From an uncultured candidatus Porisulfidus sp. (GTDB taxonomy: Bacteria; Pseudomonadota; Gammaproteobacteria; Poriferisulfidales; Poriferisulfidaceae): a DNA stretch of 64,000 nucleotides. The notes under the pieces were generated by a model. That model did no database searches. It was given only the letters and a program-made list of their open reading frames with translations, and was not told where the DNA came from. Of the stretch, positions 24,469 through 61,629 are shown one piece after another. Within the stretch, counting starts at the first letter, position 1. Each line of letters opens with the position of its first letter. The stretch spans positions 1,040,586 to 1,104,585 of the forward strand of contig OZ241993.1 in the NCBI GenBank assembly GCA_965204575.1, written 5' to 3'. The position numbers and the translations under genes were made by a program.

Positions 24469-25769
24469 TGGCGCGTCGGCGAACCCATATTCCTCTCGAC
24501 GTCTACCTCAATGGCCGTCTTGTCGGCCGGTTGCATCGGTCGGCGGGTGGAGCAGTAGAGTTCCGGTATGACGAGAGTTGGCTGAGTTGGGAGGGCGCCT
24601 TGCCGGTTTCACTCTCGCTGCCGCTGCGCGAGGAGCGCTATTCGGGTGATGCCGTCATCACGGTTCTGGACAATCTGCTTCCGGATGATGAAGCAGTTCG
24701 CCGCCGGGTCGCGGAGCGGGTCAGGGCCGAGAGCCATAGCGTTTACGATCTCCTGTCGAAGATCGGAAGGGATTGCGTGGGGGCCTTGCAGTTCCTGCCT
24801 CAAGGGTATGCGCCCGACCCGGTGGATGCGGTGGAAGGGCGACAGATTCCTGATGGCGAGGTTGCCGAAAGAATCCGCAGCCTTGCCATGACTCCGCTGG
24901 GCATCGACGAGACGGAAGCCTTCCGGATCTCGATTGCAGGCATGCAGGAGAAAACCGCTTTCCTCCACTGGGGAGGGGAGTGGCACCTCCCGCACGGCAC
25001 GACCGCGACGACCCACATCATGAAACCGCAGATTGGCGTATTGCCGAACGGGATTGATCTCACCCAGAGCGTGGAAAACGAGCATCTGTGCCTGAAGCTA
25101 ACTTCCGCTTTCGGGTTGCCCACCGCGCGCACGGCAATCACGGACTTCGACGATATCCGCGTGCTGGTGATCGAGCGTTTTGATCGGCGCTGGGACCAGG
25201 AAGAGCGATTGTTGCGGTTGCCTCAGGAAGACTGTTGCCAGGCGCTTTCGGTGCCGTCGTCTCTGAAATACGATGCCGACGGCGGCCCCGGAATGTCCGA
25301 TCTTCTCAACTTGCTGCAAGGCAGCGACACGCCATCGGTGGACCGGCGGCTGTTCCTGAAGTCTCAGATCGTGTTCTGGCTACTCGGTGCGACTGACGGG
25401 CACGCCAAGAACTTCTCCGTTTTCTTGGGACCCGGATCCCGGTTCAGCCTAACTCCTTTTTATGACGTGATGTCGACGCAGCCCGCCGTGTATGCGGGAA
25501 AGATCAGAAAGAACCAGTACAAATTCGCACTCGCGGTCGGCGACAATCGGCACTACGTCATGGACACGATCCTGCCGCGCCATTTCGTGCAAACGGCAGA
25601 AAGCAGTGGCGTGAAAGGTACGGTCGTTGAAGAGGTCTGCGCTGAAGTAGCGGGATCAGCCGAACACGCAATCGGTGAAGCGCTGGGTTCCTTGCCAGAG
25701 GATTTTCCGGAGGCGCTGGCCGACTCGATTATCCAGGGAGTGCGGGCGCGTTTGAAGCGGCTTCAGTAG
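24468..25769 (+). CDS. hipA: HipA-family type II toxin (Ser/Thr kinase)
   Basis: 433 aa. N-terminal HipA coupling region (LDVYLNGRLVGRL) and a kinase C-domain (ATDGHAKNFSVF). The start overlaps the hipB stop. Confidence 0.85.
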   Translation: MARRRTHIPLDVYLNGRLVGRLHRSAGGAVEFRYDESWLSWEGALPVSLSLPLREERYSGDAVITVLDNLLPDDEAVRRRVAERVRAESHSVYDLLSKIGRDCVGALQFLPQGYAPDPVDAVEGRQIPDGEVAERIRSLAMTPLGIDETEAFRISIAGMQEKTAFLHWGGEWHLPHGTTATTHIMKPQIGVLPNGIDLTQSVENEHLCLKLTSAFGLPTARTAITDFDDIRVLVIERFDRRWDQEERLLRLPQEDCCQALSVPSSLKYDADGGPGMSDLLNLLQGSDTPSVDRRLFLKSQIVFWLLGATDGHAKNFSVFLGPGSRFSLTPFYDVMSTQPAVYAGKIRKNQYKFALAVGDNRHYVMDTILPRHFVQTAESSGVKGTVVEEVCAEVAGSAEHAIGEALGSLPEDFPEALADSIIQGVRARLKRLQ

Positions 25770-26004: not shown

Positions 26005-27830
26005 GAGATTTTCGAGCCGAAGAGGGTGATGTGGTCGGGTTTTGTGTCCAACCGCTGGGGGCTGAGGATGATTTTTGACGCTTCGGCGCCCTGTCGCGCA
26101 GGGCTCCGCTCGCCGCTCAGGCGGCCCGTGCCAGGGTCGCAGCCGAACCGGTCGTCACGAAGTGTCGTAGGCCAGGAACCCGGCCATTCGGTCCAGCGCC
26201 TGCCGGACCCGCTGCACATGAGCCGTCTGGAACACCAGCCGCCGGTTGCGGGCATGCCGCACCACCTTGGCCACCAGGTGGACCCAGCACAGGCGCACCT
26301 GCTTCATCCGGGTCCACAGCCAGTCGCGTCCGAACGCGGCATGCCGCAGCAGCGCGTTGACGTTGGCCGACAGCACCGCCAGCTGCCACCAGGCGGCGTT
26401 CGCCCCGAACTTCCCCGACGGCATCATGCCGCCGGCCAGGTCCTGCTTGAGCACGGCGTGCACCTCTTCGCCATGCCCGCAGCGCTCGTGCGCGAAGCGC
26501 ACCACCTCCGAGGCGGTCATCCCCAGGCCCGCCCCCTCCCCGGAGCGCCCCGGATACGGCAGGTTGGTCAGATAGACCCGGTAGCGGTACGCCGGACGCC
26601 CGGACCTCGCCGGCGTCTCGTCCGGGTTCACCCCCAACACGCCCGGCAAGACACGCCGGGTGCCGACATGGCGCAGCAGCTGCCCCCGGGACTGCCGCGC
26701 GCCCCACGGCGAGACATAATCCAGGTCGGCGCATTCCAGTTCCGGCTCCGAGGCCCGCACCGGCTCCCACCACTGCTCCGGCGTCGCCCCCACGGCCTCG
26801 CGTAGTTCTTCTCTCTGCGGCGCGCCGACCACGAAGCCGATCACGCCGAAGCGGCGCAATGCCGCCGGGCGCGAAGCCGGCACGTTGCAGAAGCGGATCA
26901 GCCGGTTCTGGCAACCCGCCCCGTCCGAACGCAGCCACACCCGCCGCACCTCCGGCGGCAGCCCCGACAGCACCCGCTGGAGCATCTCCAGGTTGCCCAC
27001 CGAGGCCGGCACGTTGCCGTCGCGGAACTGGCTCGCCAGCACCATGCCCAACTCCGGGCAGAACATCGACAGCGGCTGGTAGCCCCGCTCGCCCGGAACC
27101 TCGCCGGTCGAACTGCGGTAGGTCGGCTGCGCCTCGCGCTTGCCCGAGGCCAGCACCGTCGCATCCAGGTCCAGGGTCAACTCGTCCAGCCCCAGGCGCC
27201 GGATCAGGCCCCGCGCCAGCCGCCGGTTGACCGCCTCGACCAGTTGCAGGGCCGCCGCCGGCTCCGGCACCACCGCCGCGCCCTTCACGCGCGCCGCACC
27301 GGCCGCCGCATCATGGAAACGCCGCAGCCAGTCATGCACCGCATTGGCGGACGGGAAGGTGCGCCCGCGCCCCCCGCGGAAGCGCGCCGCCAGCCCCGCC
27401 GGCATCACCCCCAGAAGCTCCGGTTCGTAGTCGCGCACCAGTCGGCACAGGCTGCGGTCCGCCTCCAGCGCGTCCACGTCCGAGACCCGCTCGTGACCGA
27501 TCACGTTGAGCAGCAGCACGGTCAGCATCATCTGGCCGTCGCGCCAGCCCTGCGCCCCGGCCACCTGCACCGGAAGGGTCCGAAACGCCCCGCTGCGGCG
27601 CAGCAGCTCCAGCCACAGCACGGCCCCGCCACAGGCGCTGGTTCGGCTTAACTTGGGGTCGCCCCCAATGGCGACCAAAGGGGAAAAGTTCGACATATAA
27701 TGAGACTCCCGGTTGGTTGTTCCCGGTTCACCCAATGGGTGAAACTTTTGCACCACCGATTTTAACCGTTTCACTCGGTTAAATAAGCGCCAACCGGGAC
27801 CTCGCTCTCATTTAGCTCGGATATCGGGGT
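26005..27830 (-). mobile_element. IS1380-family insertion sequence (ends approximate)
   Basis: Contains the DDE transposase at 26155-27696. Terminal inverted repeats could not be defined confidently. Confidence 0.4.
26155..27696 (-). CDS. IS1380-family DDE transposase
   Basis: The C-terminal signature HAVLKQDLAGGMMPSGKFGANAAWWQLAVLSANVNALL fits the conserved H-x-K-x-LK...SGKF-AN-W...LA-N pattern of IS1380 transposases. An ATG at 27696 has a GGGAG SD; there is an upstream in-frame GTG at 27774. Confidence 0.7.
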   Translation of the reverse strand: MSNFSPLVAIGGDPKLSRTSACGGAVLWLELLRRSGAFRTLPVQVAGAQGWRDGQMMLTVLLLNVIGHERVSDVDALEADRSLCRLVRDYEPELLGVMPAGLAARFRGGRGRTFPSANAVHDWLRRFHDAAAGAARVKGAAVVPEPAAALQLVEAVNRRLARGLIRRLGLDELTLDLDATVLASGKREAQPTYRSSTGEVPGERGYQPLSMFCPELGMVLASQFRDGNVPASVGNLEMLQRVLSGLPPEVRRVWLRSDGAGCQNRLIRFCNVPASRPAALRRFGVIGFVVGAPQREELREAVGATPEQWWEPVRASEPELECADLDYVSPWGARQSRGQLLRHVGTRRVLPGVLGVNPDETPARSGRPAYRYRVYLTNLPYPGRSGEGAGLGMTASEVVRFAHERCGHGEEVHAVLKQDLAGGMMPSGKFGANAAWWQLAVLSANVNALLRHAAFGRDWLWTRMKQVRLCWVHLVAKVVRHARNRRLVFQTAHVQRVRQALDRMAGFLAYDTS

Positions 27831-40925: not shown

Positions 40926-41025
40926 TTGTCATTGCCGTTTGCGGGCGGTCCCAACGTGAATTATAAAGAAAGGTTGATGATTTTATTGGCAATCTATAAG
41001 ATGGTTTAAAATAAAAGAGATTCGC

Positions 41026-41945
41026 ATGGCACACAGGCAACCCGGGAAATCGTATCGTCAGGGCATCGCTCTGGCCCACCTGTTCGACACGTTCCCGAAC
41101 GAGAAAGCGGCGCAGGAATGGTTCGAAAGCGTGGTATGGGCGAAGGGACGCTACTGCCCACGCTGTGGCTCTACGAGCACCCACGAGGCCAAGCATGCGA
41201 AATGCCCATACCGTTGCCGCGATTGCGGAAAGTACTTCAGCGTGAAGACGGGAACCGCCATGGCATCGTCCAAAGTTTCTCTTCGCAAGTGGGCCATCGC
41301 CATATACATTGACGCGACCAGCCCGAAAGGCGTGTCTTCGCTCCAGTTGCACCGAGATATCGGTGTGTCGCAGCCCACGGCCTGGTTCATGTTGCACCGC
41401 ATCCGCGAAGGATTCACGGACAAGCGCGCATCTATGGATGGCTTGGCCGAAATTGATGAGATGCACATCGGCGGCAAGCGTAAGAATATGCCCAAGAGTA
41501 AGCGAAAGGAACGGTCAGGGCGGAGTGCAACCGGCAGGACTGCGGTCGTTGGCGTGAAGGATCGCCAGACGAGGAAAGCTCGTGCAAAAGTGGTGGCGGA
41601 CCCGGGTTTGGACACTCTCCATGAGTTTCATTCGTGATCACGTCGCTGATGACGCAAAGGTCTGTACGGACGATGCCGTTCGACTCTGAACCCGTGAAAC
41701 ATGGCATGGGAGAGTACGTGCGGGGCATGGCCTACACGAACGGGGTCGAGTCGCTCGGGCTCATGCTTGAGCGGGGCGATATCGGTATTGATCATCAAAT
41801 GATTGCAAAGCATCTTCACTGGTACGTCAGCGGATTCGCCGGTCGTCACGGGGTGCGCGAGCGGAACACGCTGGAGCAACTGCGGGATGTTGCCGCTAGA
41901 ATGGCCGGCAAGAGGTTGCCGTATTGCGAACGGGTTCGTTTCTGA
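41026..41945 (+). pseudogene. IS1595-family transposase, inactivated by at least two frameshifts
   Basis: An N-terminal Zn-ribbon (CPRCGSTSTHEAKHAKCPYRCRDCGKYF) and DDE region read to EFHS* at 41637. The segment IRDHVADDAKVCTDDA lies in another frame. A third frame carries GMGEYVRGMAYTNGVESLG...HLHWYVSGFAGRH. Confidence 0.75.
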
Positions 41946-47594: not shown

Positions 47595-48422
47595 TCAACT
47601 GTCGGCCGCTTCGCGCAGGAGCGCGTTGATGCCGACCTTGCTGCGGGTCTTCTGGTCGACCTGCTTGACGATCACCGCGCAGGCCAGGCTGTACTTTCCG
47701 TCGGAAGCGGGCAGCGAGCCGGGGACGACCACGGCGCCGGCCGGGACCCGGCCGTAGGAGACCTCGTCGCGTGCGCGATCGTAAATCCGGGTGCTCTGGC
47801 CGATGAACACGCCCATGGAGATGACCGCGCCGCGTTCGACGATTACGCCTTCCACGATTTCCGAGCGTGCGCCGATGAAGCAGCCGTCCTCGATGATGGT
47901 GGGGGCGGCCTGCAGCGGTTCCAGCACGCCGCCGATGCCGACGCCGCCGGAGAGATGGACGTTCTTGCCGACCTGGGCGCAGGAACCGACCGTCGCCCAG
48001 GTGTCCACCATGGTTCCGGAGTCGACGTAGGCCCCGATGTTCACGAAACTCGGCATCAGCACCACGCCGGGCGCGATGAAGCTGCCGAAGCGCGCGGTCG
48101 CGGGCGGCACGATGCGGACTCCGCCGCTGTCCAGTTCCTTTTCGCTGCCCAGGGCGAAGCGGCCGGCCACCTTGTCGCGGTAGCGGGTGTGCCCGCCATC
48201 GATGACCTCGTTGTCGGTGATGCGGAACGAAAGCAGCACGGCCTTCTTGAGCCACTCGTTGACGACCCAGCCGCCGCCGGCGGGCTCGGCGACCCTCAGG
48301 CGGCCGTCGTTGAGGTCCTGCAGGGCTTCCCGCACGGCGTCGCGAACGGGCTCGGGGGCGGAGTCCGGGGTCAGTTGCGCGCGTTCCTCGAACGCCTGCT
48401 CGATGGTGGACTGGAGGCTCAT
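47595..48422 (-). CDS. dapD: 2,3,4,5-tetrahydropyridine-2,6-dicarboxylate N-succinyltransferase
   Basis: Hexapeptide-repeat left-handed beta-helix region. 275 aa. Confidence 0.9.
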
Positions 48423-48612
48423 GAGAGAGGCCCGGCTGAAAGCATGGCGCGTATGTTAACAGGAAGGTCGCGAGAGGCGGGGGCGGGCGGGCCGGCGACC
48501 GATGATTTTTCACCGTTGCGGCCGGCGCGTCCGCCGCGCTTGGAGTGGCGCACACCCGCGCAGGGACAGCGGCACGGCATGTTGTATACTTAGGCGAAAC
48601 CACAATGGTAGC

Positions 48613-48631
48613 CCCCCCCCCCCCCCCCCCC
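48613..48631. repeat. Poly-C homopolymer tract (19 C) in the dapD/secB-like divergent intergenic region
   Basis: gccccccccccccccccccccctag, read directly from the sequence. Confidence 0.9.
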
Positions 48632-48862
48632 TAGAAAGAGTCTTCCCCCGCGCCTCCGCGGCGGGCATCGGGAACGTCCGCGGCACCGCCCCGCGCAGGG
48701 CTGGCCGCGCGAGACGGCGGTCGGGCACGTGGCGCGGCCATCGCCAGGCAGGGCGCGTTCTTTCATGCCGGCCTCAAGCGCCTGCCCAGACCGGGGTTTG
48801 ATAAAGAAAAAACTATTTGTTAAAATCCTGCCCATCATCGGGAAGTGGTATTTGCATCTTTA

Positions 48863-49285
48863 ATGGAACCTAACATCGTTATGCATGGCCGATACATACG
48901 GGATCTATCCTTCGAGAATTTCGGTGCGCCGGCCTTGCCGGGGGACGCCGCCCCCGTCTTCGACATCGACGTCGGGGTGGAGAGCAGGCGGGCCCGGGAC
49001 ATGCACGAGGTGATGCTGTTCGTCCAGGTCACCGCCCGGCGCGAGGAGCAGATCGCGTTCCTGATCGAGTTGAACTACGCCGGCCTGTTCCAGGTCCAGG
49101 ACCTGGACGAGCGGGAGACGCGGCGTTTCCTCCACACCGAGGCGCCGCGCATGCTGTTTCCGTTCGTCGACCGGATCTGCGCGGACGCGACCCGGGACGG
49201 CGGCCTGCCGCCGCTGGCCCTGACGACCCCGGACTTCGCCCTGCTGTACCGGGAACGCGAGGAGAAACCCGCCGCCATCGACTGA
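48863..49285 (+). CDS. secB: SecB-like export chaperone
   Basis: GRYIRDLSFEN..., HEVMLFVQVTARREEQIAFLIELNYAGLF and MLFPFVDRICADATRDGGLPPLALTTPDFALLY align with E. coli SecB. Confidence 0.7.
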   Translation: MEPNIVMHGRYIRDLSFENFGAPALPGDAAPVFDIDVGVESRRARDMHEVMLFVQVTARREEQIAFLIELNYAGLFQVQDLDERETRRFLHTEAPRMLFPFVDRICADATRDGGLPPLALTTPDFALLYREREEKPAAID

Positions 49286-49314: not shown

Positions 49315-50727
49315 ATGCAAGAATCCCCCCCCCCCCCCTCAAACCATAACCGGCCTGAACTAGGGCCCGGCGCGGCCCGCGCGCCGGTCCTGCGCCGTCG
49401 CCGTCGCGACGGGTGGCTGCCGCCGGAGAAACGCCGTGCGCGTTCCAGGACGCGGGTGCGCCGGCAGGTGGCGGTCAACGTGCTGGGGGTGTGCTCCATG
49501 CTTTCGCACTCGGTGGCGCCGTACCTGGCGGCGGTCGCCGCGAAAAGCACCACCGCGGTCGGCGCGGTCGGCACGTTCGCCGCCCTGGCGCCCGACGAGG
49601 CGGCGGCGCAAAACCCGGGCCCGGCGGGAGCCAAGGGCGACAAGGGCGACAAGGGCCAGGTGGGCATTCCTGGACGACCGGGCGACAAGGGCGAGGAGAT
49701 GGGCGCACCCCCCGGTGAGAAGGGCGCAACAGGCGTAAAGGGCTCGCCCGGCGGAGAAGGTCAGAAGGGCGATCAGGGACGGCCGGGCAATCGAGGCAGC
49801 CGAGGCATACCGGGCGAAGAGGGGGCGAAGGGCGTGCTGGGATTCAAAGGCCTTCCGGGAGGCGCTGGCGATCAGGGCTCGAAGGGCCCGAGGGGCGATC
49901 CAGGTCCGCAGGGCTCGGCGGGTGTCAAGGGCGATACGGGCCAGAAGGGCGACCCGAAGGCGATCGGTGCCAAGGGCGATACAGGCGAGGCGGGCGCACC
50001 GGGTGCACCGGGCACGCCGGGCGCGCAGGGTTCGCAGGGCGCACAGGGCGCACAGGGCGCGCCGGGCGCACCGGGCGCATCGGGCACGCCGGGCGCCAAA
50101 GGGGAGGCAGGCGCGGGCGGCTTCGATTTTTCCGAGCAGGGGAAGGCGCGGGTCCGGGAGAAGGCCCGGGCCCTGCGGGAATCGGAGAACCCGGCCGACC
50201 AGCGGATCGGTCGGCTGCTGGAAGGCATCCTGGACGAGCTGGCGCCGGCCGCGGGGGGACAGCTGCAGTCGCTGCAGTCCGCCGGCGGGCGGGCGCTGCA
50301 GACCGAGGAGCCGGCGAGTGACAGCCTGACCCTGCTGCGGTATGCCTCCCGCTCCGACACGCCCCGGGCGGAGCAGGCCGGGGCGCTGATGGGCAGCATC
50401 TTCCTGAACCAGCGGGACATCGCCGAGAATCGCCAGAACATCGAGAAGAACCGGCAGGACATCGCCGGGCTGCGGGACGAGGACTACAGGCTGCGCAACC
50501 GCTCGCGCGAGGGGACCGCCCTGGCCATCGCGCTCGGCGGCATCCACTTCCCGCTGGACAAGGACCGGTCCGTCTCGCTGCGCTTCGGGCGCTTCGAGGG
50601 CGAGGAGGCGCTGGCGCTGGGCGCGTCCTTCCGCCTGCGGGAGAACTGGCAGATCGATTTTGGCATGGGCCGGGGGCTGAGCTACCGGCAGAACGGCTAT
50701 TCCGCCGGGCTGAGCTACAGCCGGTAG
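49315..50727 (+). CDS. Collagen-like trimeric autotransporter adhesin, paralog 1: Gly-X-Y repeat stalk, coiled coil, YadA-like C-terminal anchor
   Basis: About 56 Gly-X-Y triplets ([21 protein letters not shown]...), with Lys and Pro frequent in the Y position. The C-terminus [69 protein letters not shown] matches the YadA anchor pattern. The start is uncertain: ATG 49315 reads through the poly-C tract, and ATG 49498 is a conservative internal alternative. Confidence 0.65.
49325..49338. repeat. Poly-C homopolymer tract (14 C) at the 5' end of the first collagen-like adhesin gene
   Basis: aatcccccccccccccctc. It is in frame, encoding SPPPPS, if translation starts at ATG 49315. Confidence 0.9.
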
Positions 50728-50764: not shown

Positions 50765-52189
50765 ATGAGCAGCGAGGAGAAGAGGCGGCCGGATTCGGAA
50801 GACGGGCTTCCGCCCGAGTCGAGGGAGGCCGCGGGGCGCGCGCCGGTCCTGCGCCGTCGCCGTCGCGACGGGTGGCTGCCGCCGGAGAAGCGCCGTGCGC
50901 GCTCCGGGACGCGGGTGCGCCGGCAGGTGGCGGTCAACGTGCTGGGGGTGTGCTCCATGCTTTCGCACTCGGTGGCGCCGTACCTGACGGCGGTCGCCGC
51001 GAAAAGCACGACCGCGGTCGGCGCGGTCGGCACGTTCGCCGCCCTGGCGCCCGACAAGGCGGCGGCGCAGGACCCGGGCCCGCCGGGCCAGAAGGGCGAA
51101 AAGGGCGACGCGGGCGTACAGGGCGCGCCGGGTTCGCAGGGCGCGCCGGGTGGCGAAAAGGGCGGCCGGGGCGACATGGGCCAGAAGGGCGAGCCGGGTG
51201 ATCCGGGCGCCACGGGCGAGAAGGGTTCGCAGGGCTCACCCGGCAGGCGTGGCATCACCGGCAACAAGGGCGAGGAGGGTGATCCGGGCGCGACAGGTAG
51301 TCAGGGTCAGAAGGGCGTTTTCGGCGAGCCGGGTGATCCGGGTCCGCAGGGCGCGGCAGGTGATCCGGGTCAGAAGGGCGCGATGGGTCAGAAGGGCGAG
51401 GCCGGCGGCCCGCCGGGCCAGAAGGGCCAAAAGGGGACAGCCGGCACAGCCGGCCCGTCGGGCGCCGCCGGTGCGCCGGGCGCAGCCGGTGCGCCGGGCG
51501 CCGCCGGTGCGCCGGGCGCTGCCGGTGCATCGGGCGCCGCCGGTGCGCCGGGCGAGAAAGGCGATGCGGGCGCGGGCGGCCTTGACTTCTCCGAGGAGGG
51601 GAAGGCGCGGATCCGGACCACGGCCCAGATCCTGCAGAAATCGGAGAATCCCGCCGACCGGCAGATCGGGGAGCTGCTCGAGGAGGTCCTGGACGAACTG
51701 GCGCCGGCCGCCGAGGGACAGCTGCAGTCGCTGCAGTCGGCCGGCGGGCAGGCGCTGCAGGCCGGGGAGGAGCCGACGGGCGACAGCCTGGCCCTGCTGC
51801 GCTACGCCGCCCGCTCCGACGTCACCGGGGCGGAGCAGGCCGGGGCGCTGGTGGGCAGCGTGCTCCTGAACCAGCGGGACATCGCCGAGAATCGCCAGAA
51901 CATCGAGAAGAACCGGCAGGACATCGCCGGGCTGCGGCACCAGTACCGCGACCTGCGCGACCGCTCGCGCGAGGGGACCGCCCTGGCCATCGCGCTCGGC
52001 GGCCTGCGCGTCCCGGTGGCCCGGGACTGGGCCGTGTCGCTGCGCTTCGGGCGCTTCGAGGGCGAGGAGGCGGTCGCGCTGGGCGCGGCCTTCCGCCTGA
52101 AGGAGGGCTGGCAGGTCGATTTCGCGCTGGGCCAGGGCCTGAGTTACTCGCAGAACGGCTATGCCGGTGGCGTGAGCTACAGCTGGTAG
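50765..52189 (+). CDS. Collagen-like trimeric autotransporter adhesin, paralog 2
   Basis: A strong SD (AGGAGG) sits 8 nt upstream of ATG 50765. There is an Arg-rich N-terminal extension, a conserved hydrophobic leader, about 50 Gly-X-Y triplets, and a YadA-like anchor ending ...GVSYSW. Confidence 0.8.
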
Positions 52190-52199
52190 CCCGGTCGCG

Positions 52200-52832
52200 A
52201 TGGCGGTGCGGCGGCGGGCGGCGGAGGCGGCGATGCGGCACTTGCTGACGTACGAGGGGGCACGGGCGGACGGCTGCTGGCGGGAGGTCGCCCCGGACAT
52301 CCTGACCTTCCCGTTCTGGACCCCGGACTTCTGCGAGGAACTGGTGGCGGTGTCCGAGCTGCTCGACGAGTTCCGCCCGTACGCCCCCGACGTGGAGGGC
52401 AACGCCGCGCCGGGGCAGGAACTGCGGATCAACCGGATCAGCCCGCGCTTCGCGGAACAGTTCGAGACGCATTTCCAGGAGCGCGCGGCGCCGATCCTCC
52501 GCGTGCACTGGTGGCCGCTGAACCTGGGCAAGACGCGCATGCCCTTCGTGCTGCGCTACTCCGCCGACACGCAGGCCTCCCTCGACCCGCACCACGACGC
52601 CGCCATGGTGAGCCTGGCGATGCCGCTCAACGCCGGCTACGAGGGCGGGCACCTGACCTTCCCGCGCCAGCACTGGGACAGCCGCGAGGTCGAGGTCGGG
52701 CACGTGATCGCCTTTCCGAGCCGGGTCACCCACGTGCACTGGGTCACGCCGGTGACCTCCGGGACCCGCTACGCGATGACCTGCTGGCTGTCCGACCCGA
52801 ACGCCCAGCCCGACGATGCCATTCTCGCGTGA
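52200..52832 (+). CDS. 2OG-Fe(II) oxygenase homologous to the catalytic domain of procollagen lysyl hydroxylase (PLOD/LH)
   Basis: LDPHHDAAMVSLAMPLNAGYEGGHLTF...HVIAFPSRVTHVHWVTPVTSGTRYAMTCWLSDP parallels the human PLOD C-terminus ([29 protein letters not shown]...GTRYIMVSFVDP). HxD...H iron triad. Confidence 0.8.
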   Translation: MAVRRRAAEAAMRHLLTYEGARADGCWREVAPDILTFPFWTPDFCEELVAVSELLDEFRPYAPDVEGNAAPGQELRINRISPRFAEQFETHFQERAAPILRVHWWPLNLGKTRMPFVLRYSADTQASLDPHHDAAMVSLAMPLNAGYEGGHLTFPRQHWDSREVEVGHVIAFPSRVTHVHWVTPVTSGTRYAMTCWLSDPNAQPDDAILA

Positions 52833-54267
52833 GGAGCCGGCGGACGTCCCCGCCGTCCTTGTCGTCCACCTCGCGCGCCACCGGGAACGCCGCCGCCGCC
52901 TGTCCGCCCTGCTGAAGCGGCACGGGTTCGCGCACGTGAACTGGCTCGACGCGGTGGACGGCCGGGAGCTGGACCCCGCGCCGCCGTGGCGGGGCGCCGG
53001 CCTGCCGCCGGCCAACGCCTGGCCGAACTGGGCGGATCCGTACGCCCGCCGCGCCCTGACCCTGGGCGAGGTTGCCTGTACCCTGTCGCACGTGGCCGCC
53101 TGGCGGCGCATCGCGGACGAGGGCTACCCCGCCATCGTGCTGGAGGACGATGCGCTCCCGGTGGAGCCGCTGATCCGGGACCTGCCGGACCTGCTGGCGG
53201 ACCTCGATCACTTCGACTTCGACCTGTGCTACCTCGCCCAGCGCAACGCGCCGGGGCCGAAGGCGCTGATGGGCCGGCACGTGCACCTGGTCGACTACCA
53301 CCCGGTGTGGACGCTGGCCTACCTGCTGGCGCCGTCCGGCGCGGAGAAGCTGCTCGCCAGCCCCTGGCAGAGCCGGCTGGTCCCGGCCGACGAACTCCTG
53401 CCCGCCGCGTTCGGCCGGAACCGGGACCCGGAGATCAACCGGGCCTACGTCGGCGACGGCGGCATGGTGCTGTCCAGCAACCAGCGCTTCTTCACCCCGG
53501 CCGAGGGTTCGGAGAGCAGCGAGACCGAGAAGAGCCGGCCGGTGCGGGAGCCGGAATGCGGCCTGACGGGCCTGACCGTGGCGACCGAACGCCGCCCGGA
53601 ACTGCAGCGCCTGCAGGAGTCCGGCCTGCGCTACGGCCTGGAGATCGAGGCCCTGGGGCTGGGCCAGCCCTGGCGCGGCGGCGAGATGTCCGAGGGCACC
53701 GGCGGGGGACAGAAGATCAACCTGCTGCGCCCCGCCCTGCAGCGGCTGCCGCCGGAGCGGCCGGTGCTGTTCGTGGACGGCTACGACACCCTGATCTCCG
53801 GGCATGTCTCGGACATCCTGGGCGCCTGGCGGCAGACCTGCGACGGCCCGCTGTTCGCCGCCGAGGTCTACTGCTGGCCGGATCGCGACCGGGCCGACGA
53901 CTACCCTTCCGCGGCGACCCCCTACCGCTTCCTGAACTCCGGCGCCTTCATCGGCAAGGCCGGGGACCTGCTGCGCATCCTGGACGGGAAGATCGACGAC
54001 CGCGCGGACGACCAGCGCTACTACACCGAGCGCTTCCTGTCCGGCCGGCACGGCATGACGCTGGACACCGAGTGCCGGGTCTTCCAGTGCCTCAACGGCG
54101 CCCTGGACGACGTGCGGGCGGACGAGGGGCGGGGCATGCTGTTCAACCGGCGCACCGAGAACTGGCCGGCGGTGATCCACGCGAACGGCCCAAGCAAGGA
54201 GTGGCTGGAGAAGGACGGCCGGCCCGTGGGCGGCCGCTGGCGCCGCTACTACGGGGAGATGATTTGA
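52816..54267 (+). CDS. Bifunctional glycosyltransferase: N-terminal GT25 (collagen galactosyltransferase/LgtB-like) domain fused to a PLOD/LH3-type glycosyltransferase domain
   Basis: GT25 motifs VLVVHLARHRERR, LTLGEVACTLSHVAAWRRI and IVLEDD. The C-terminal half (LTVATE..LGLGQPWRGG..GGGQK..LFVDGYDTLISG..CWPD..YRFLNSGAFIG..YYTERFL..VFQCLNGALDDV..IHANGPSK) is colinear with the N-terminal GT domain of human lysyl hydroxylases. Confidence 0.8.
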   Translation: MPFSREEPADVPAVLVVHLARHRERRRRLSALLKRHGFAHVNWLDAVDGRELDPAPPWRGAGLPPANAWPNWADPYARRALTLGEVACTLSHVAAWRRIADEGYPAIVLEDDALPVEPLIRDLPDLLADLDHFDFDLCYLAQRNAPGPKALMGRHVHLVDYHPVWTLAYLLAPSGAEKLLASPWQSRLVPADELLPAAFGRNRDPEINRAYVGDGGMVLSSNQRFFTPAEGSESSETEKSRPVREPECGLTGLTVATERRPELQRLQESGLRYGLEIEALGLGQPWRGGEMSEGTGGGQKINLLRPALQRLPPERPVLFVDGYDTLISGHVSDILGAWRQTCDGPLFAAEVYCWPDRDRADDYPSAATPYRFLNSGAFIGKAGDLLRILDGKIDDRADDQRYYTERFLSGRHGMTLDTECRVFQCLNGALDDVRADEGRGMLFNRRTENWPAVIHANGPSKEWLEKDGRPVGGRWRRYYGEMI

Positions 54268-54286: not shown

Positions 54287-54709
54287 ATGAGCAAAAGAAT
54301 TTCAGCACTGGTCATCCTTGTCGCGCTGTCCCTGCCGCTGACCGCGCAGGCGCACGACAACCTCTTCAATCCGGGGCACCAGCACGGGCTTGAGGTCGAT
54401 GCCATTTCCGAGCGCAACAGAGGGTCTTTCTGCATCGTGTTCAAGGAATCTTCGGTCGAGTGTCCAGAGAAGTACAACAGCCTCAGAGGGTGCGCGTACA
54501 AGTGCCTGTACCGGGTATGGGCGGACTGGTCGGACGACCGGGGGAGTGGCCGCGAGGTCGATCATAACTGGAGCCGCTGCCATATTGCAGGCAGTCACAA
54601 CCCGGCGCTTGCGGCGGCGGAAGTCCGCATCACCAAGCCGCACTGGGCGACCGGGGCCTGGGGCGCGTATGTCCGCGCCGGGGATGACGGAGAAAAGATC
54701 GTGAGGTGA
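54287..54709 (+). CDS. Small secreted Cys-containing protein (signal peptide)
   Basis: MSKRISALVILVALSLPLTAQA signal peptide; 7 Cys residues; low-GC segment. Confidence 0.5.
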   Translation: MSKRISALVILVALSLPLTAQAHDNLFNPGHQHGLEVDAISERNRGSFCIVFKESSVECPEKYNSLRGCAYKCLYRVWADWSDDRGSGREVDHNWSRCHIAGSHNPALAAAEVRITKPHWATGAWGAYVRAGDDGEKIVR

Positions 54710-54737
54710 GACTGATGAACCCAAACAGGAGAAAATC

Positions 54738-55031
54738 ATGAAGAAAACCATACCCGCGCTGATCCTGATGCTGGCCTTGTCCCCGGCATACGGATTGGCA
54801 CCTAAACCCCGACCCCTTGTGGACATCTGCAAGGATCACTTCGAAAGAAGTTCCGCCTACCAGAGTTGCACCGATATTCAATATGCGGATGTCGGCGGCG
54901 GCTACTGCAAGGTCATGGCGTGGTGCCGCTCGGTAAATGAAACGCTATCTTCCACGTCCAAGAGGACAAAGCCGTCGGAGGCCGACGAACTGTACAACTG
55001 TCAGGGCCAGTTGACGATCAAGGTTTGCTGA
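54738..55031 (+). CDS. Small secreted Cys-rich protein (signal peptide)
   Basis: MKKTIPALILMLALSPAYGLA signal peptide, an SD (AGGAGA) upstream, and 8 Cys residues. Confidence 0.5.
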   Translation: MKKTIPALILMLALSPAYGLAPKPRPLVDICKDHFERSSAYQSCTDIQYADVGGGYCKVMAWCRSVNETLSSTSKRTKPSEADELYNCQGQLTIKVC

Positions 55032-55083: not shown

Positions 55084-56055
55084 ATGCCTTCCGGGGAACC
55101 CGTGCTGGTCACCGGCGGGGCTGGCTACGTGGGCAGCCATGTGGCGCTGGCGCTTCGCGAGGCGGGCTACCCTGCCGTGGTCCTCGACGACCTCTCCACG
55201 GGGCGGCGCGAGGCGGTGCCCGACGGGGTTGGATTCATCGAGGGCGATGTCGGCGACCGGGTCGCCGTCGGCCGCATCCTCGGGGAATCCCGCATCGCCG
55301 CCGTCGTGCATTGCGCCGCCAGCGTCAGCGTCCCCGAATCCGTGCGCGACCCGCTACGCTACTACCGCAACAACAACAGTGCGGGCACGGGCTTGGTCCG
55401 CGCCTGCGTCGAGGCCGGGGTGGGACGCTTCGTCTTCTCGTCGACCGCCTCGGTGTACGGCGTGCCGCGCACGGTGCCGATCCCCGAGGATGCCCTGACC
55501 CTCCCCATCAATCCCTACGGATGCTCCAAGCTGGCCTCCGAATGGATGCTGCGCGATGTCGCGGCGGCCCACGACTTCCGCTGCATCACGCTGCGCTGCT
55601 TCAATGCGGCCGGGGCCGACCCCCGGGGCCGGGCCGGGTCGGATGGCCCGGATTCCGGACACCTGATCGAGGTCGCCTGTGCGGCCCTCGCCGGCCGCCG
55701 CGACCGCGTCACCGTGTACGGCACGGACTACGGGACGGCGGACGGCACCTGCGTGCGGGATTACGTCCACGTGTCGGATCTCGCCGCAGCCCATGTCGCC
55801 GCGCTGCGCGAGCTCGAGGACGGGGGGGAAGGCGGCGTGTTCAACTGCGGCTACGGACGCGGCTTCTCGGTCCGCGAGGTGTTGGAGACGGTGCAGGCCG
55901 AGGCGCGCGTGCGCCTCGACATCCGCGACGGGCCGCGTCGCGCCGGCGACCCCCCGGTGCTGATCGCCGAGGCGTCGAGAATTCGACGGACGCTGCGCTG
56001 GTCGCCGCGCTTCGACGACCTCGCCGTGATCGTCCGCACCGCACTCGCCCGCTGA
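55084..56055 (+). CDS. galE: UDP-glucose 4-epimerase
   Basis: Rossmann motif VLVTGGAGYVGSH, catalytic YGCSK, and an SDR extended-family C-terminus. Confidence 0.85.
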   Translation: MPSGEPVLVTGGAGYVGSHVALALREAGYPAVVLDDLSTGRREAVPDGVGFIEGDVGDRVAVGRILGESRIAAVVHCAASVSVPESVRDPLRYYRNNNSAGTGLVRACVEAGVGRFVFSSTASVYGVPRTVPIPEDALTLPINPYGCSKLASEWMLRDVAAAHDFRCITLRCFNAAGADPRGRAGSDGPDSGHLIEVACAALAGRRDRVTVYGTDYGTADGTCVRDYVHVSDLAAAHVAALRELEDGGEGGVFNCGYGRGFSVREVLETVQAEARVRLDIRDGPRRAGDPPVLIAEASRIRRTLRWSPRFDDLAVIVRTALAR

Positions 56056-56450: not shown

Positions 56451-56722
56451 CCTTCGGATGATCCCGCAGCCCTTCAGGCTCCTGTCTCGTTGGAAATGGT
56501 ATGAAGGCCGCCTTGGTTTTGGCGGGCGGATCATCAGGAGAGAGAGGCGAACCCTCCAGCCTGGTTGCTGGAAACCGATATTGTCCACCTGGGGCACTTT
56601 AGATGCCGTACCGGACTGCTGGAGGGTTCGCCTCCTCATCCGATCAGATCCAGGCCGGGCGGCCTTTATAATGGCAATCCACAAATGACGGGCTTCGGAA
56701 GCATCGGAGCATCGGCCAAACA

Positions 56723-57349
56723 ATGGAAGGACCCGACATCGTCTGCGTTCACCAGACCAACTTCCTGGAAAAGGAGGAAGCGCTCCGCCTGCGCGACCAG
56801 ATGGCCCAGGCCATCTCCCTGCACGGAAGCCAGGGGACCGTGGGCAGCAGAGACGGGAATTTCAGCGTCGACAAAACCTACCGGAACTCCAAGATCTACT
56901 TCCTCGACCCGTGGAACCCGCCCGACTGCATGGACGGCGACCTGGTGCGGGCGGTGTTCTACAAGATCGCCGGGTTTGCGGAAATCGCCTGCCGCACCAC
57001 CCTCAAGCACCTTGACATCCGCCTGAACGATCTCGCCGGCACCCCGCTTCAACTCGGCCGCTACCGGGTGGGCGAGCGGTACGAGGAGCATTCCGACAAC
57101 AGCGAGAGTTCGCATAAGGGGCGGCTGCTCTCGATCTCCGTGACCGTCTCGAGCGCCCGCGAGGGCGGCCACCTCTTGCTCAGGCGGCTTCCTCCGAGCA
57201 GTCCGGCGGTCGAGGAAATCCGGCAGGACCGGGCCATCGTCGCCTTTCCGAGCTGGGAACGGCACAGCGTGAGCGCCGTCGAGCAAGGGGAACGCTATTC
57301 GATCGTGACGTGGTTCGAAGGCACGCGCGGAAGCCCGGGGCAGCGGTGA
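56723..57349 (+). CDS. Prolyl 4-hydroxylase-like 2OG-Fe(II) oxygenase (P4Hc/PKHD type)
   Basis: RVGERYEEHSDNSE (HxD) ... KGRLLSISVTVSSAREGGHLLL ... AFPSWERHSVSAVEQGERYSIVTWF fit the P4Hc fold and match the layout of YbiX/PiuC-type hydroxylases. Confidence 0.7.
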   Translation: MEGPDIVCVHQTNFLEKEEALRLRDQMAQAISLHGSQGTVGSRDGNFSVDKTYRNSKIYFLDPWNPPDCMDGDLVRAVFYKIAGFAEIACRTTLKHLDIRLNDLAGTPLQLGRYRVGERYEEHSDNSESSHKGRLLSISVTVSSAREGGHLLLRRLPPSSPAVEEIRQDRAIVAFPSWERHSVSAVEQGERYSIVTWFEGTRGSPGQR

Positions 57350-58219: not shown

Positions 58220-60862
58220 CTATTCGCGCAGGGAGTCCCCGAGTTCCTTGATGTGCTGGCGCAGGGTATCGGAGATCTGCGTCTGCATCTTGGGGTCCCG
58301 GATCGGGCGGGACTTGGCGTCGGTCACGGTGAACACGTCCTGCACCTGCGCGCCCAGGGTCGTGATCCGCGCCTGGGTGATCCGGACCTGGCACGAGTCG
58401 AGGGCCCGGCTGACGGTCCACAGCAGGCCCGGGTGGTCGGAAGTCGAGAGGTTGATCCGGGTCTCGGGCGGGGTCTCGCGCTGCACGAATTCGATTTCGG
58501 TCGGGAGGTCGAAGTGCCGGGTCCGCCGTTTCGGTCGACGCAGCACCGGGCGGTCGAAGTCCCCCGGCGCCTGCGCCACGTTCTGCAGGGTGGTGCGCAT
58601 TTCCTCCAGCGCATAGCGTTCGCTGATCGGATGACCGTCGACGTCGGTCACCAGGAAGGTCTGCAGGATGTGGTGGTCGCGGGTCTTGGTGATGCGCGCG
58701 TACAGCACGTTCGCGCCGAGCCGGGCGAGCGCCGCCGTGAGCGGGACGAACAGGCGGGCATGGCTTTCATCGTAGACCAGCACTTCCGTGCAGTGATGCA
58801 CGCCCTGGTGGCGCACGAACACCTGGGTCGGGATTCCGGGGTTGCGGCCGACAATGCACTCGGTCTGCCAGGCCAGTTCGTCGTCGGTGTAGTGCAGGAG
58901 GTCGCCGTCGGACAGGGAGTCCCAGAACCGGTGGCAGGCGGCCGGTTCGCCTTGGGAGACTTTCGCGAGTGCCGAAGTCTTGAGGTCGTCGATCTGCCGT
59001 GCCGCGTCGAACGGCCGGTCCAGGCCGCGCTGCAACTGCTGGTCGGTCGCGACGTACAGCTGGTACAACAGTGCTTCGCGCCAGGGCGTCCACAGCGCCG
59101 GGTTGGTGCCGCGCAGGTCGGCGACCGTCAGCAGGAAGAGGCCGCGCAGGCGAACCCCGTTTCCGACCAGCCCCGCGAACTGGCTCACCACGTCCGGGTC
59201 GCTGATATCGCGCTTCTGCGACGTCATCGACATCTGCAGGTGATGCTCGACCAGCCAGTGAACCATGCCGGCGTCGTAGGCGCTCAGATGGTGATTCAGG
59301 CAAAACTCCCGGGCGAGCCTGCTGCCGATGCTGGAATGGTCGCCGTCGCGCCCCTTGCCGATGTCGTGGAACAGGGCCGCGAGGTACAGCAGTTCGGGCT
59401 TGGGGAATTGCAGGAACAGCTCGCGGTAGAGGGGGTTTTCGCCTTTCCGGACCGTCTTGGTGATATGCCGCAACTCGGTCAGCACCCGCAGGGTGTGCTC
59501 GTCCACCGGGTGGATGTGGAACAGGTCGTACTGCATCATGCCGACCACCTTCGCGAAGTCCGGCCAGTACCGGCGCAGGACGCCGTAACGGTTCATGCGG
59601 CGCAGTTCGCGGGCGACGTGCTGGGGCTGGCGCAGGATCTCCATGAACAGGCTCTTGGAGGCCAGCCGGGCGCGGAAGGCGTCGTCGATCCGATGCAGGC
59701 TGGCGCGGACCGACCGGATGGTGCGCGCCCGCACGCCCTCGATTTCGGGGTTTTGCTGCAGCAGCAGGAACAGTTCCAGAAGCCCTTGGGGGTGGCGCTC
59801 GAAGACCTGCTCGTTGCGGGTCTCCAGGTAGCCGTCCAGGGCCTGGAAATAGGCGTTCAGGGGCCTCGGGGCATTGCGGCTGGGCGGTTGCAGGCTCTCG
59901 CGGTACTGCTGGCCGAGCACTTCGGCGAGACGATCGATCTCGCTGGTCGTGCGGTAAAAGTCCTGCATGAACGACTCGACGGTATGGTTGACGGTGTCGC
60001 CCTGGTAGCCGAGCCGCTCGGCGATCGGGCGCTGGTAGTTGAACAGCAGGCGCTCTTCGGCCTGGCCGCTGGCCTCGTGCAGGGCGAAACGCACCCGCCA
60101 CAGGAACCGCTCTCCCTCGTGCAGCAGTTCCAGTTCCTCCGGCTCGCAGAAGTCCGACGGGCTCTCGATGTCTTCGTGCCGCTTCAGGATCCAGTGCAGG
60201 GTCTGGATGTCGCGCAGTCCGCCGGGCCCCTCCTTGATGTTGGGCTCCAGCCGGTAGTTGCTGCCGCCGAACTGCCGGTGGCGGAATTCCTGCTCCGTGA
60301 CCTTGCCTTGAAAGAATTGCCCGTGGGTCCACAGGGGCGCCCGGAACAGCCCGATCCGGGGCACCAGGTTGCCTTCCAGGTCGCGGGCCAGCTTGGAACT
60401 CCCGCACAGGTGCCTCATCTCGAGCCAACTGGTCATCAGGGTGATATCGTCGCGGGCGTCCTGGCGGCACTGGTGAACGGTGCGCACGCTCTGCGACAAC
60501 TTCAGCCCGCCGTCCCACAGGGCCTGGAAGAACGGGCCCAGTTCCTCCGGGGCGCGCCGCCCCCGGTACAGGGCCAGGATGTCGATATCGGAATAGGGGT
60601 GAAGTTCGCCCCGGCCGTAGCCGCCAACCGCGAGCAAAGCGAGATCCTCGACCTCATTCAACCGGTACTCGCGCCACAACACCTGCAGCATCCGGTCGAT
60701 GAGTTCGGCCCGTGCGTGGATCAGTTCGGCAATGTCATGGTCCGGGAAGCGTTCCGACAGGAACTGCTGGATCGCCTCGGTCCACCGCTTCCAGCTTGCG
60801 GGGCCGGCATCCTGCGGCGAGGGATGCGCGTTGAGGCAGGCCTGGGCCAGGTCGGTTCTCAC
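58220..60862 (-). CDS. glnD: Bifunctional uridylyltransferase/uridylyl-removing enzyme GlnD
   Basis: Nucleotidyltransferase motif LALLAVGGYGRGELHPYSDIDIL, an HD domain, and two C-terminal ACT domains. GTG start at 60862 overlaps the map stop. Confidence 0.88.
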   Translation of the reverse strand: MRTDLAQACLNAHPSPQDAGPASWKRWTEAIQQFLSERFPDHDIAELIHARAELIDRMLQVLWREYRLNEVEDLALLAVGGYGRGELHPYSDIDILALYRGRRAPEELGPFFQALWDGGLKLSQSVRTVHQCRQDARDDITLMTSWLEMRHLCGSSKLARDLEGNLVPRIGLFRAPLWTHGQFFQGKVTEQEFRHRQFGGSNYRLEPNIKEGPGGLRDIQTLHWILKRHEDIESPSDFCEPEELELLHEGERFLWRVRFALHEASGQAEERLLFNYQRPIAERLGYQGDTVNHTVESFMQDFYRTTSEIDRLAEVLGQQYRESLQPPSRNAPRPLNAYFQALDGYLETRNEQVFERHPQGLLELFLLLQQNPEIEGVRARTIRSVRASLHRIDDAFRARLASKSLFMEILRQPQHVARELRRMNRYGVLRRYWPDFAKVVGMMQYDLFHIHPVDEHTLRVLTELRHITKTVRKGENPLYRELFLQFPKPELLYLAALFHDIGKGRDGDHSSIGSRLAREFCLNHHLSAYDAGMVHWLVEHHLQMSMTSQKRDISDPDVVSQFAGLVGNGVRLRGLFLLTVADLRGTNPALWTPWREALLYQLYVATDQQLQRGLDRPFDAARQIDDLKTSALAKVSQGEPAACHRFWDSLSDGDLLHYTDDELAWQTECIVGRNPGIPTQVFVRHQGVHHCTEVLVYDESHARLFVPLTAALARLGANVLYARITKTRDHHILQTFLVTDVDGHPISERYALEEMRTTLQNVAQAPGDFDRPVLRRPKRRTRHFDLPTEIEFVQRETPPETRINLSTSDHPGLLWTVSRALDSCQVRITQARITTLGAQVQDVFTVTDAKSRPIRDPKMQTQISDTLRQHIKELGDSLRE

Positions 60863-61629
60863 GGGAACCGTTCGTCGGGCCGGGCGGTCAGCACCTCGAA
60901 GCCGTCCCCGGTGACCAGGATGGTGTGCTCCCACTGGGCCGACAGGCTGTGGTCGCACGTGACCACGGTCCACTGGTCCGGCAACAGCCGCACCTGCGGC
61001 ATCCCGGCGTTGATCATCGGTTCGACCGTGAAGGTCATCCCGGGCTTCAGCGCCATCCCGGTGCCGGCCTTGCCGTAGTGCAGGACTTGCGGGTCCTCGT
61101 GGAATTCGCGCCCGATGCCATGGCCGCAGTATTCGCGCACCACGGACAGGTTGCGGGCCTCCGCGAAGCTCTGGATGGCATGGCCGAGGTCGCCGAGCTG
61201 GAGGCCCGGGCGCACCAGGCAGATGGCCCGGTGCATCGCCTCGTAGGTCAGGTCGACCAGCCGGCGGGCCTGCACCGACGGCTTGCCGAGCAAAAACATG
61301 CGGCTGGTGTCGCCGTGGTAGCCGTCCTTGATGACGGTGACGTCGATGTTGAGGATATCGCCGCGCTTGAGCTTGCGGTCGGAGGGGATGCCGTGGCAGA
61401 CCTGGTGGTTGAGCGTGGTGCAGACGGATTTCGGGAAGCCGAGGTAGTTCAGCGGGGCCGGGACGGCGTCCTGCTTCTCCGTGATGTGACGGTGGCACAG
61501 GTCGTTGAGGTAATCCGTGGTGACCCCGACCTTGACGTGCTCGGCGATCATTTCCAGCACTTCCGCGGCGAGGCGCCCGGCGGTACGCATCTTCTCCACT
61601 TCGTCGGAGGTTTTGATGGTGACGGGCAT
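60859..61629 (-). CDS. map: Methionine aminopeptidase type I
   Basis: 256 aa. The metal ligands D, D, H, E, E are in their conserved positions. Confidence 0.93.
   Translation of the reverse strand: MPVTIKTSDEVEKMRTAGRLAAEVLEMIAEHVKVGVTTDYLNDLCHRHITEKQDAVPAPLNYLGFPKSVCTTLNHQVCHGIPSDRKLKRGDILNIDVTVIKDGYHGDTSRMFLLGKPSVQARRLVDLTYEAMHRAICLVRPGLQLGDLGHAIQSFAEARNLSVVREYCGHGIGREFHEDPQVLHYGKAGTGMALKPGMTFTVEPMINAGMPQVRLLPDQWTVVTCDHSLSAQWEHTILVTGDGFEVLTARPDERFP

Follow-up and report, generated by a model that had tools for sequence, protein, structure and literature searches.

We analyzed a 64-kb stretch of contig OZ241993.1 from an uncultured candidatus Porisulfidus sp. (hereafter the window, at its full length), in which an intact plus-strand open reading frame (ORF) at 48863..49285 encodes a SecB-like chaperone of 140 amino acids, with an ATG start, an isoelectric point (pI) of 4.8 and a GC content at third codon positions of 0.84. 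The gene heads a plus-strand operon within a block of ~9.8 kb that parts dapD (47595..48422; Pfam THDPS_N_2 and Hexapep), with an ArsC-family gene and dapE further to its left, from glnD (58220..61498; Pfam GlnD_UR_UTase, HD and ACT), both on the minus strand. In E. coli K-12, dapD directly adjoins glnD, with order and strand unchanged, which bears out the original prediction that the chaperone gene lies in an inserted segment; no direct or inverted repeats marking a mobile element were observed at the ends of the island. From the SecB-like gene through an epimerase gene the gaps are 10-52 nt, and the gene of a lysyl-hydroxylase-like oxygenase (52200-52832) overlaps that of a glycosyltransferase with GT25 and PLOD-type domains by 17 nt. 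A sigma-70-like promoter (TTGATA-17-TAAAAT, its -10 element extended by TG; 48798..48826, plus strand) matches 10/12 consensus positions, lies 37 nt upstream of the SecB-like ATG and is the sole strong site in the 10-kb island; in L172, a rearranged strain, an AT-rich ..TAAAAT element likewise immediately precedes the SecB-like gene. As had likewise been predicted, two autotransporter genes (49315-50727 and 50765-52189) follow the chaperone gene directly.

The protein encoded at 48863-49285 is a real SecB homologue, because its Pfam match, its PDB matches, its fold and its SecA-docking residues are those of SecB, and the predicted alignment with SecB over the whole length was confirmed by profile, PDB and fold. 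In particular, residues 2-134 matched positions 5-139 of 141 in the Pfam SecB profile (PF02556; E 1.3e-34, 119.5 bits versus a cut-off of 26), and E. coli and H. influenzae SecB were matched in PDB at full length with E of about 2e-12. The AlphaFold model, with a predicted local distance difference test (pLDDT) score of 88.6, has strands at 4-19, 32-44, 47-60 and 63-79 and helices at 83-112 and 125-134, so that the four-stranded antiparallel sheet, the long helix and the short C-terminal helix of the SecB fold are all present. Foldseek gave template modelling (TM) scores of 0.85-0.88 against the crystal structures 1QYN, 1FX3 and 1OZB of E. coli and H. influenzae SecB, compared with 0.70-0.73 against Rv1957, the chaperone of an M. 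tuberculosis toxin-antitoxin-chaperone (TAC) system, and Rv1957 was not matched by the SecB-like protein in a phmmer search at E up to 1. The acidic SecA-docking patch of E. coli SecB, which we take to be formed by D20, E24, L75 and E77, aligns with D14, E18, L67 and E69 of the SecB-like protein. Among the close relatives of this protein (hereafter the branch), D14 and E18 are invariant, L67 is conserved in at least 90%, and the position of E69 always carries E or D; the C-terminal tail is variable and not conserved. The location of the SecA-docking surface on SecB has been described previously (PMC6377645). SecB proteins form tetramers that take up unfolded preproteins and deliver them to SecA; the SecB-like protein, too, is presumably a tetramer.

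The two genes downstream, on the plus strand, encode collagen-like trimeric autotransporter 1 (49315..50727) and its tandem duplicate, autotransporter 2 (50765..52189). Both matched Pfam Collagen and YadA_anchor (YadA_anchor E 5.9e-8 and 3.2e-7, respectively), and by this domain content they are trimeric autotransporters (type Vc); they are also the presumed clients of the chaperone. The original prediction had spoken of an adhesin island and of "very long" Gly-X-Y passengers. Two adhesins are indeed present, of the trimeric type, but the island holds far more, namely a hydroxylation and glycosylation cluster, and the passengers have only about 48-54 triplets. Copy 1 contains 48 Gly-X-Y triplets with 0 Lys at X and 12 at Y, and copy 2 contains 54 triplets with 0 Lys at X and 11 at Y; the collagen domains at related loci showed the same pattern, with 0 Lys at X versus 8-34 at Y. 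A Y-position Lys forms the X-Lys-Gly site that collagen lysyl hydroxylases use. At two related loci without the transferase, the collagens were Lys-poor and Pro-rich, and only prolyl-hydroxylase-like genes were present.

Before the signal sequence, the collagen proteins carry a leader, LRRRRxDxWWxP...R(K/R)[15 protein letters not shown], followed by a hydrophobic stretch and AAAQ. This Arg/Trp-rich leader is very basic and conserved across genomes, and between copies 1 and 2 it is about 97% identical, compared with about 45% for the collagen part. Because the leader is conserved and basic with Trp, the chaperone is acidic, and TAC chaperones recognize Trp/Arg motifs in their client (PMC6377645), we proposed that the leader may act as a recognition tag to which the chaperone is predicted to bind. 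At its C-terminus, copy 1 reads ...GLSYSR (50710-50727), whereas copy 2 and 14/14 orthologues end in Trp; outer-membrane beta-barrels usually end in an aromatic residue, which copy 1 lacks, and this copy may be impaired. A giant collagen-like protein was observed at one related locus (L008, 873-8549), with >2,550 amino acids and about 790 Gly-X-Y triplets, Pro-rich at X and Y; its gene is followed by a prolyl-hydroxylase-like gene and then by the SecB-like gene, and a glycosyltransferase gene is absent from the 10 kb around it.

The remainder of the operon encodes homologues of collagen-modifying enzymes. The plus-strand gene at 52200..52832 encodes a collagen lysyl-hydroxylase homologue, a 2-oxoglutarate (2OG)/Fe oxygenase that matched the human LH3 hydroxylase domain (E 6e-14) and L230 of mimivirus (1e-12), with the HxD...H...R residues aligned. 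It is followed by a two-domain glycosyltransferase (52816..54267, plus strand; Pfam Glyco_transf_25 and GT_PLOD), of which the N-terminal GT25 domain matched the human procollagen galactosyltransferase COLGALT1 in PDB at 1e-22, and the C-terminal domain matched the glucosyltransferase domain of LH3 at 2e-40 and mimivirus R699 at 8e-34; orthologues of this GT25-PLOD protein are 63-82% identical, with an invariant VDGYD. A UDP-glucose 4-epimerase, GalE (55084..56055, plus strand; PDB GalE 4e-88, Pfam Epimerase), would serve as the supplier of UDP-galactose. Further downstream, a prolyl-hydroxylase-like 2OG/Fe oxygenase of the type that we call Oxy2 is encoded at 56723..57349 on the plus strand (Pfam 2OG-FeII_Oxy_3). 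Its identity was taken from a search of PDB with the family profile, which matched prolyl hydroxylases only (PBCV-1 prolyl 4-hydroxylase (P4H), 2e-8; P3H1, 3.5e-8; Chlamydomonas P4H, 6e-8); a structure predicted from 5 sequences reached a pLDDT of 32.5 and was set aside. The lysyl hydroxylase, the glycosyltransferase, GalE and the Oxy2 oxygenase are all without a signal peptide. The cluster thus looks like a full line from Lys to hydroxylysine (Hyl), Gal-Hyl and Glc-Gal-Hyl, together with proline hydroxylation, located in the cytoplasm. The modifications themselves are predicted from enzyme homology, and the confinement of Lys to Y, together with the low Lys content at the loci lacking the transferase, supports them indirectly. 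A recent review describes prokaryotic collagens as mostly without hydroxylation and glycosylation (PMC8968730), and published work makes no more than passing mention of homologues of collagen-modifying enzymes in bacteria (PMC12279948, PMC12003778).

We addressed the linkage of the chaperone gene to this cluster by comparing 16 loci: the window, L001, L003-L008, L086, L087, L090, L092, L095, L096, L170 and L172. In 16/16 of them, the SecB-like gene lies 0-2 genes from collagen/YadA, 2OG-oxygenase or GT25-PLOD genes. This association was maintained across at least five gene orders, in which the chaperone gene is first, last, between collagen genes or divergent, and across different flanks (dapD/glnD, petABC, sdh, miaB-ybeY, argJ, rpoA-rplQ and others). 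Start and stop codons overlap those of the neighbouring genes, at several junctions by a few bases, or nearly abut them in L001, L003, L005 and L087. The most conserved neighbour is the prolyl-hydroxylase-like gene, which directly adjoins the SecB-like gene in L001, L003, L007, L008, L086, L090, L092, L095, L096, L170 and L172. Frame-broken extra copies of branch-type SecB were observed inside the cluster in L001 and L172, and no branch member was found outside a collagen cluster. From a scan of a genome collection we obtained 3 members of the branch together with 77 secB loci of alphaproteobacteria, and collagen-cluster neighbours were present at 0/77 of these canonical loci. The housekeeping neighbourhood, which is grxC-secB-gpsA in gammaproteobacteria and Tim44-fxsA-secB-dnaQ-coaE in alphaproteobacteria (the latter seen in L169), was found at none of the 16 branch loci. 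These results agree with the earlier suggestion that the gene lies outside the housekeeping context of secB. They also lend weight to the idea of an export chaperone dedicated to the collagen autotransporters as far as the link to these proteins is concerned.

The relationships of the branch within the SecB family were examined by an exhaustive profile search over 1.84 billion representatives, with SecB clusters defined at 50% identity. Of the 3690 SecB clusters recovered, the collagen-linked branch occupied the top 4; canonical SecBs followed below these in a continuous series, and the nearest named ones were from Maricaulaceae (Alphaproteobacteria); a word-based search with the SecB-like protein gave 15 close protein clusters. 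The ORF is intact at the 16 loci, with identities reaching down to about 45-50% and the core residues invariant. On the NCBIfam models, the window protein scored under all SecB equivalog cut-offs (130.4 versus 143 bits on the alpha-type NF004392; 91 versus 102.8 on TIGR00809), and the ten other branch members tested scored 116-129 bits on NF004392, so that 11/11 fell at 116-130 bits, under its cut-off, and far under the gamma-type models, with only P0009 barely reaching TIGR00809 (103.8 versus 102.8). Control SecBs passed the SecB cut-offs. By its scores and its neighbourhood, the SecB-like protein is therefore placed outside the curated housekeeping equivalogs. We also considered the label "alpha-type SecB" on the basis of the NCBIfam scores alone, but it was weakened by E. 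coli SecB, which scores as well on NF004392 (136 bits); the probable alphaproteobacterial affinity of the branch rests on the exhaustive search and on the named nearest clusters. Among the genes of the window are those for BamC and a homodimeric AceE, features typical of Beta/Gammaproteobacteria. Because the nearest canonical SecBs are alphaproteobacterial and these host features are Beta/Gammaproteobacterial, the comparison points to acquisition of the chaperone from outside rather than descent from the host lineage's own secB. Related loci derive from metagenome-assembled genomes (MAGs) that bear the labels Gammaproteobacteria and Candidatus Poriferihabitaceae (Arenicellales); a sponge metagenome is known to have yielded MAGs of the Poriferihabitaceae (PMC12859430).

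A complementary view was obtained by scanning metagenomes with the transferase, which yielded 10 close loci (66-81% identity) and 70 distant loci (27-42%). A YadA-type anchor was present at all 10 close loci, and the SecB-like gene was present at those long enough on the relevant side, whereas SecB and a YadA anchor were found in 0/70 distant loci. Collagen-like ORFs with Lys only at Y were nevertheless encoded at 41/70 of the distant loci. Because the close loci have the anchor and, where long enough, SecB, and the 70 distant loci have neither, the chaperone goes together with a substrate that is exported by Sec to the outer membrane, and not with the modification enzymes in themselves. The distant loci (L099-L168; for example, L109 5393-9838, L115 11945-16162 and L126 1718-3967) lie on low-GC marine metagenome contigs, with lysyl-hydroxylase and GT25-PLOD genes beside long collagen-like ORFs. 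Several of these ORFs have C-termini that resemble, by eye only, the intramolecular chaperone domains of phage tail fibres, and the distant clusters may belong to phages or viruses whose collagen-like fibres are hydroxylated and glycosylated.

The island also varies between strains. Only two homopolymers of at least 9 bases occur in the 64 kb; both are poly-C, and they lie on either side of the SecB-like gene. One is a C20 tract in the intergenic region between dapD and the SecB-like gene (48612..48631), a candidate hypermutable site; the other is a C14 tract in codons 4-8 of autotransporter 1 (49325-49338, plus strand). Among the relatives, poly-C tracts upstream of the SecB-like gene were observed in L003 (C28, 9899-9926), L005 (C20, 9914-9933) and L006 (C14, 243-256), with a further tract at L007 6051-6062, and the short-read contig L174 breaks exactly at the C20 tract. 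The length of the coding tract differed between samples of the same species (C14 in the window, C13 in L174 at 680-692, and C16 in L172 at 10472-10487). ON/OFF switching at the coding tract is a candidate only, since C13 and C14 are both in frame through a compensating change, and the poly-C tracts are candidate slipped-strand switches. L172/L173 come from a different sample of this species (95% identity). There, the segment that runs from the SecB-like gene through GalE has the opposite orientation with respect to the prolyl-hydroxylase-like gene and glnD, and insertions of an IS605-type tnpB and of a second, frameshifted SecB-like copy are present as well. The breakpoints of this inversion in the window are at 48838 and about 56665, and the latter is closely preceded by an inverted repeat with perfect 17-bp arms (56544-56560 and 56618-56634).

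Taken together, we consider it probable that the SecB-like protein is a cluster-dedicated anti-folding and export chaperone for collagen-like surface proteins in sponge-associated Gammaproteobacteria. In the mechanism that we propose, for which binding, client specificity, hand-over to SecA and the modifications are predicted, the strong operon promoter would drive expression of the chaperone and of between one and three trimeric autotransporters with collagen repeats. In the cytoplasm, the SecB-like protein, which is acidic and presumably tetrameric, would bind the new precursor, perhaps via its Arg/Trp-rich leader, and hold the bound chain monomeric and non-helical, while the lysyl hydroxylase, the GalE-fed Gal/Glc-transferase fusion and the prolyl-hydroxylase-like enzymes would modify Lys and Pro at the Y position. 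The chain could then be passed to SecA through the conserved acidic docking patch, and trimerization and triple-helix formation would occur only after export, at the YadA-type anchor. The Sec pathway requires unfolded substrates. A SecB-type holdase would fit this scheme because modification precedes the triple helix and Sec needs unfolded chains. Collagen chains can no longer be modified once the trimer and triple helix have formed (PMC8968730). The modification cluster is thus a more specific reason for an anti-folding chaperone than is passenger length. With more reserve, we suggest a wider possibility, which we hold to be somewhat short of an even chance, that the operon of these sponge symbionts is a self-contained bacterial counterpart of the collagen-maturation line of the animal endoplasmic reticulum (ER), which would yield an animal-like surface collagen with Glc-Gal-hydroxylysine, with a SecB paralogue as a dedicated tag-reading chaperone and an operon perhaps switched by poly-C tracts and inversion.

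Several observations weigh against a dedicated chaperone. The ratio of nonsynonymous to synonymous substitution rates (dN/dS) of the SecB-like gene is 0.2-0.56, which is constraint, yet only moderate constraint. The preference for Lys at Y can be explained on structural grounds alone. In the exhaustive search, the gap between the branch and the canonical alphaproteobacterial SecBs was small (160 versus 151 bits), and, given the score of E. coli SecB itself on the alpha-type model, the sub-threshold NCBIfam scores are a matter of divergence and not of new function. The status of dedicated paralogue is drawn from comparative context, with 64 kb of the 1.8-Mb genome searched for a second SecB. 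In addition, contigs L091, L093, L094, L097 and L098 end before the expected chaperone site, and the constant presence of the chaperone therefore refers to fully seen loci.

An alternative explanation is that the protein is the cell's sole general-purpose SecB, situated beside or captured by the collagen cluster and serving all SecB-dependent preproteins. Such a role would agree with the fully canonical fold and SecA-docking residues, with the name "protein-export chaperone SecB" given by NCBI to one branch member, and with the finding of no second SecB in the 64-kb window. A housekeeping gene, however, is unlikely to have moved with an accessory cluster through so many gene orders and flanks, and its position behind poly-C tracts, the inversion between strains and the pseudogene copies inside the cluster would be unexpected for it; moreover, its nearest canonical relatives are alphaproteobacterial in a host that is Beta/Gammaproteobacteria-like, and the branch was not found away from the cluster. 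We therefore regard this explanation as unlikely, although it deserves consideration. We give less credence still to a purely cytoplasmic anti-folding or presentation factor that would serve the hydroxylases and glycosyltransferases, as an analogue of ER collagen chaperones, with no role at SecA. The enzymes need unfolded chains (PMC8968730), and the prolyl-hydroxylase-like gene, adjacent in 11 named loci, is the closest companion of the chaperone gene, both of which would suit a helper of modification; but the SecA-contact residues are conserved across the branch, and such a helper would be expected also in the 70 distant clusters, where no Sec-exported YadA protein and no SecB were found.

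The possibility that the gene hitch-hikes neutrally or is decaying, without any part in the cluster's function, suggested by the moderately high dN/dS and by the degraded copies in L001 and L172, appears very improbable, because the ORF is intact at 16/16 loci in spite of identities as low as those given above, the core residues are invariant, and the gene has kept its place beside its neighbours after repeated rearrangement. The original prediction had also drawn an analogy to the SecB paralogs of TAC systems. Where SecB homologues occur outside housekeeping contexts, about 7% of cases show an association with toxin-antitoxin pairs (PMC6377645), which makes a TAC-type SecB that stabilizes an antitoxin worth weighing; it was ruled out by gene content and similarity, and we assign it next to no probability. 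No toxin or antitoxin domain was found in the neighbouring genes, in the window or at any related locus, the two hipA genes of the window are 23-28 kb away, and the small ORFs at 54287-55031 both carry signal peptides. The structural scores and the phmmer search likewise place the protein nearer the export SecBs than Rv1957. The analogy is thus a loose one: it stands in that the presumed client is encoded in the chaperone's own operon, and it fails in the lack of adjacent toxin-antitoxin genes, in the closeness to export SecBs and in the retention of the SecA-docking residues.

A dedicated chaperone of this kind would combine features of several known systems. SecB has known roles as a general export chaperone and as an antitoxin chaperone in TAC systems (PMC6377645). 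With housekeeping SecB, the protein shares its Pfam family, fold, length, acidity and SecA-docking residues, and presumably the same holdase and hand-over mechanism; the branch differs in that it scores under the equivalog cut-offs, was at no locus seen in a housekeeping context, evolves faster, has a variable C-terminal tail, and is always encoded within, and apparently co-transcribed with, a client and modification cluster. With the TAC chaperones (Rv1957, that of CmdTAC and their relatives), it would share the specialization of a SecB homologue for a client of its own operon and a Trp/Arg-rich segment in that client, here a putative tag, comparable to the chaperone-addiction (ChAD) sequence of antitoxins. 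Unlike in TAC systems, the presumed client is a secreted outer-membrane protein and not a cytosolic antitoxin, no toxin-antitoxin pair is present, the SecB-like protein is nearer the export SecBs with its SecA patch kept, and the putative tag is N-terminal, before the signal peptide.

The modifying enzymes resemble the collagen machinery of animals and mimivirus in the homologues of lysyl hydroxylase, both sugar transferases and prolyl hydroxylases, in the confinement of Lys to Y in the substrates, and in modification that would precede the triple helix. They differ in their predicted location in the bacterial cytoplasm, followed by Sec and type Vc export, and in the fusion of the two transferase domains in one protein without a hydroxylase domain; in addition, the anti-folding role would be that of a SecB homologue and not, as in animals, of Hsp47, PDI or FKBP65. 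In AIDA-I/Aah, TibA/TibC and HMW1/HMW1C, an adhesin is glycosylated in the cytoplasm by a neighbour-encoded enzyme before Sec export, as would be the case here, but these systems use heptosyl or N-glycosyl transferases and beta-helical passengers. To our knowledge, none of them has a dedicated SecB paralogue encoded alongside. In the literature that we searched, no paper linked SecB to collagen-like autotransporters or described the cluster.

If the proposal of a cluster-dedicated chaperone is correct, a SecB lineage for one secreted client family would represent a third use of the fold and a second, independent specialization of SecB besides TAC systems, and it would provide a natural system for the study of how SecB client specificity is encoded. 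An operon with a full enzyme set would also contradict, for this group, the view of prokaryotic collagens as unmodified (PMC8968730). The operon could be used as a ready-made toolkit for the production of modified recombinant collagen in bacteria, and a host-like glycosylated collagen on symbionts in the collagen-rich matrix of sponges suggests mimicry or anchoring.

Between the glycosyltransferase and GalE genes, two small Cys-rich ORFs with signal peptides, identified from their translations, lie on the plus strand at 54287-54709 and 54738-55031; they have a lower GC content, neither had a Pfam match, and both are kept in the same-species contig L174. Among the canonical secB loci (L012-L085), the distance between secB and dapE was 3-6 kb in Sphingomonadales (L081, 8 kb), and in Nitrospirillum (L025, L053 and L064) secB lay about 3 kb from glnD; dapE and glnD also flank the island of the window. 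We considered this proximity of dapE or glnD to canonical secB in Sphingomonas and Nitrospirillum to be coincidental, as it involves two lineages only, with differing spacing and strand. Another variable region of the window, unrelated to the island, has a lower GC content (0.53-0.59), with a GC dip at 40-43.5 kb. Two kinase genes of the HipA family are found there, together with a DDE transposase and a fragment of an IS1595-type transposase (at 21138-22415, 24414-25769, 26155-27807 and 40981-41637), and the region is surrounded by the housekeeping genes proS, aceE, lpdA, thrS-infC-pheT, lepB and era.

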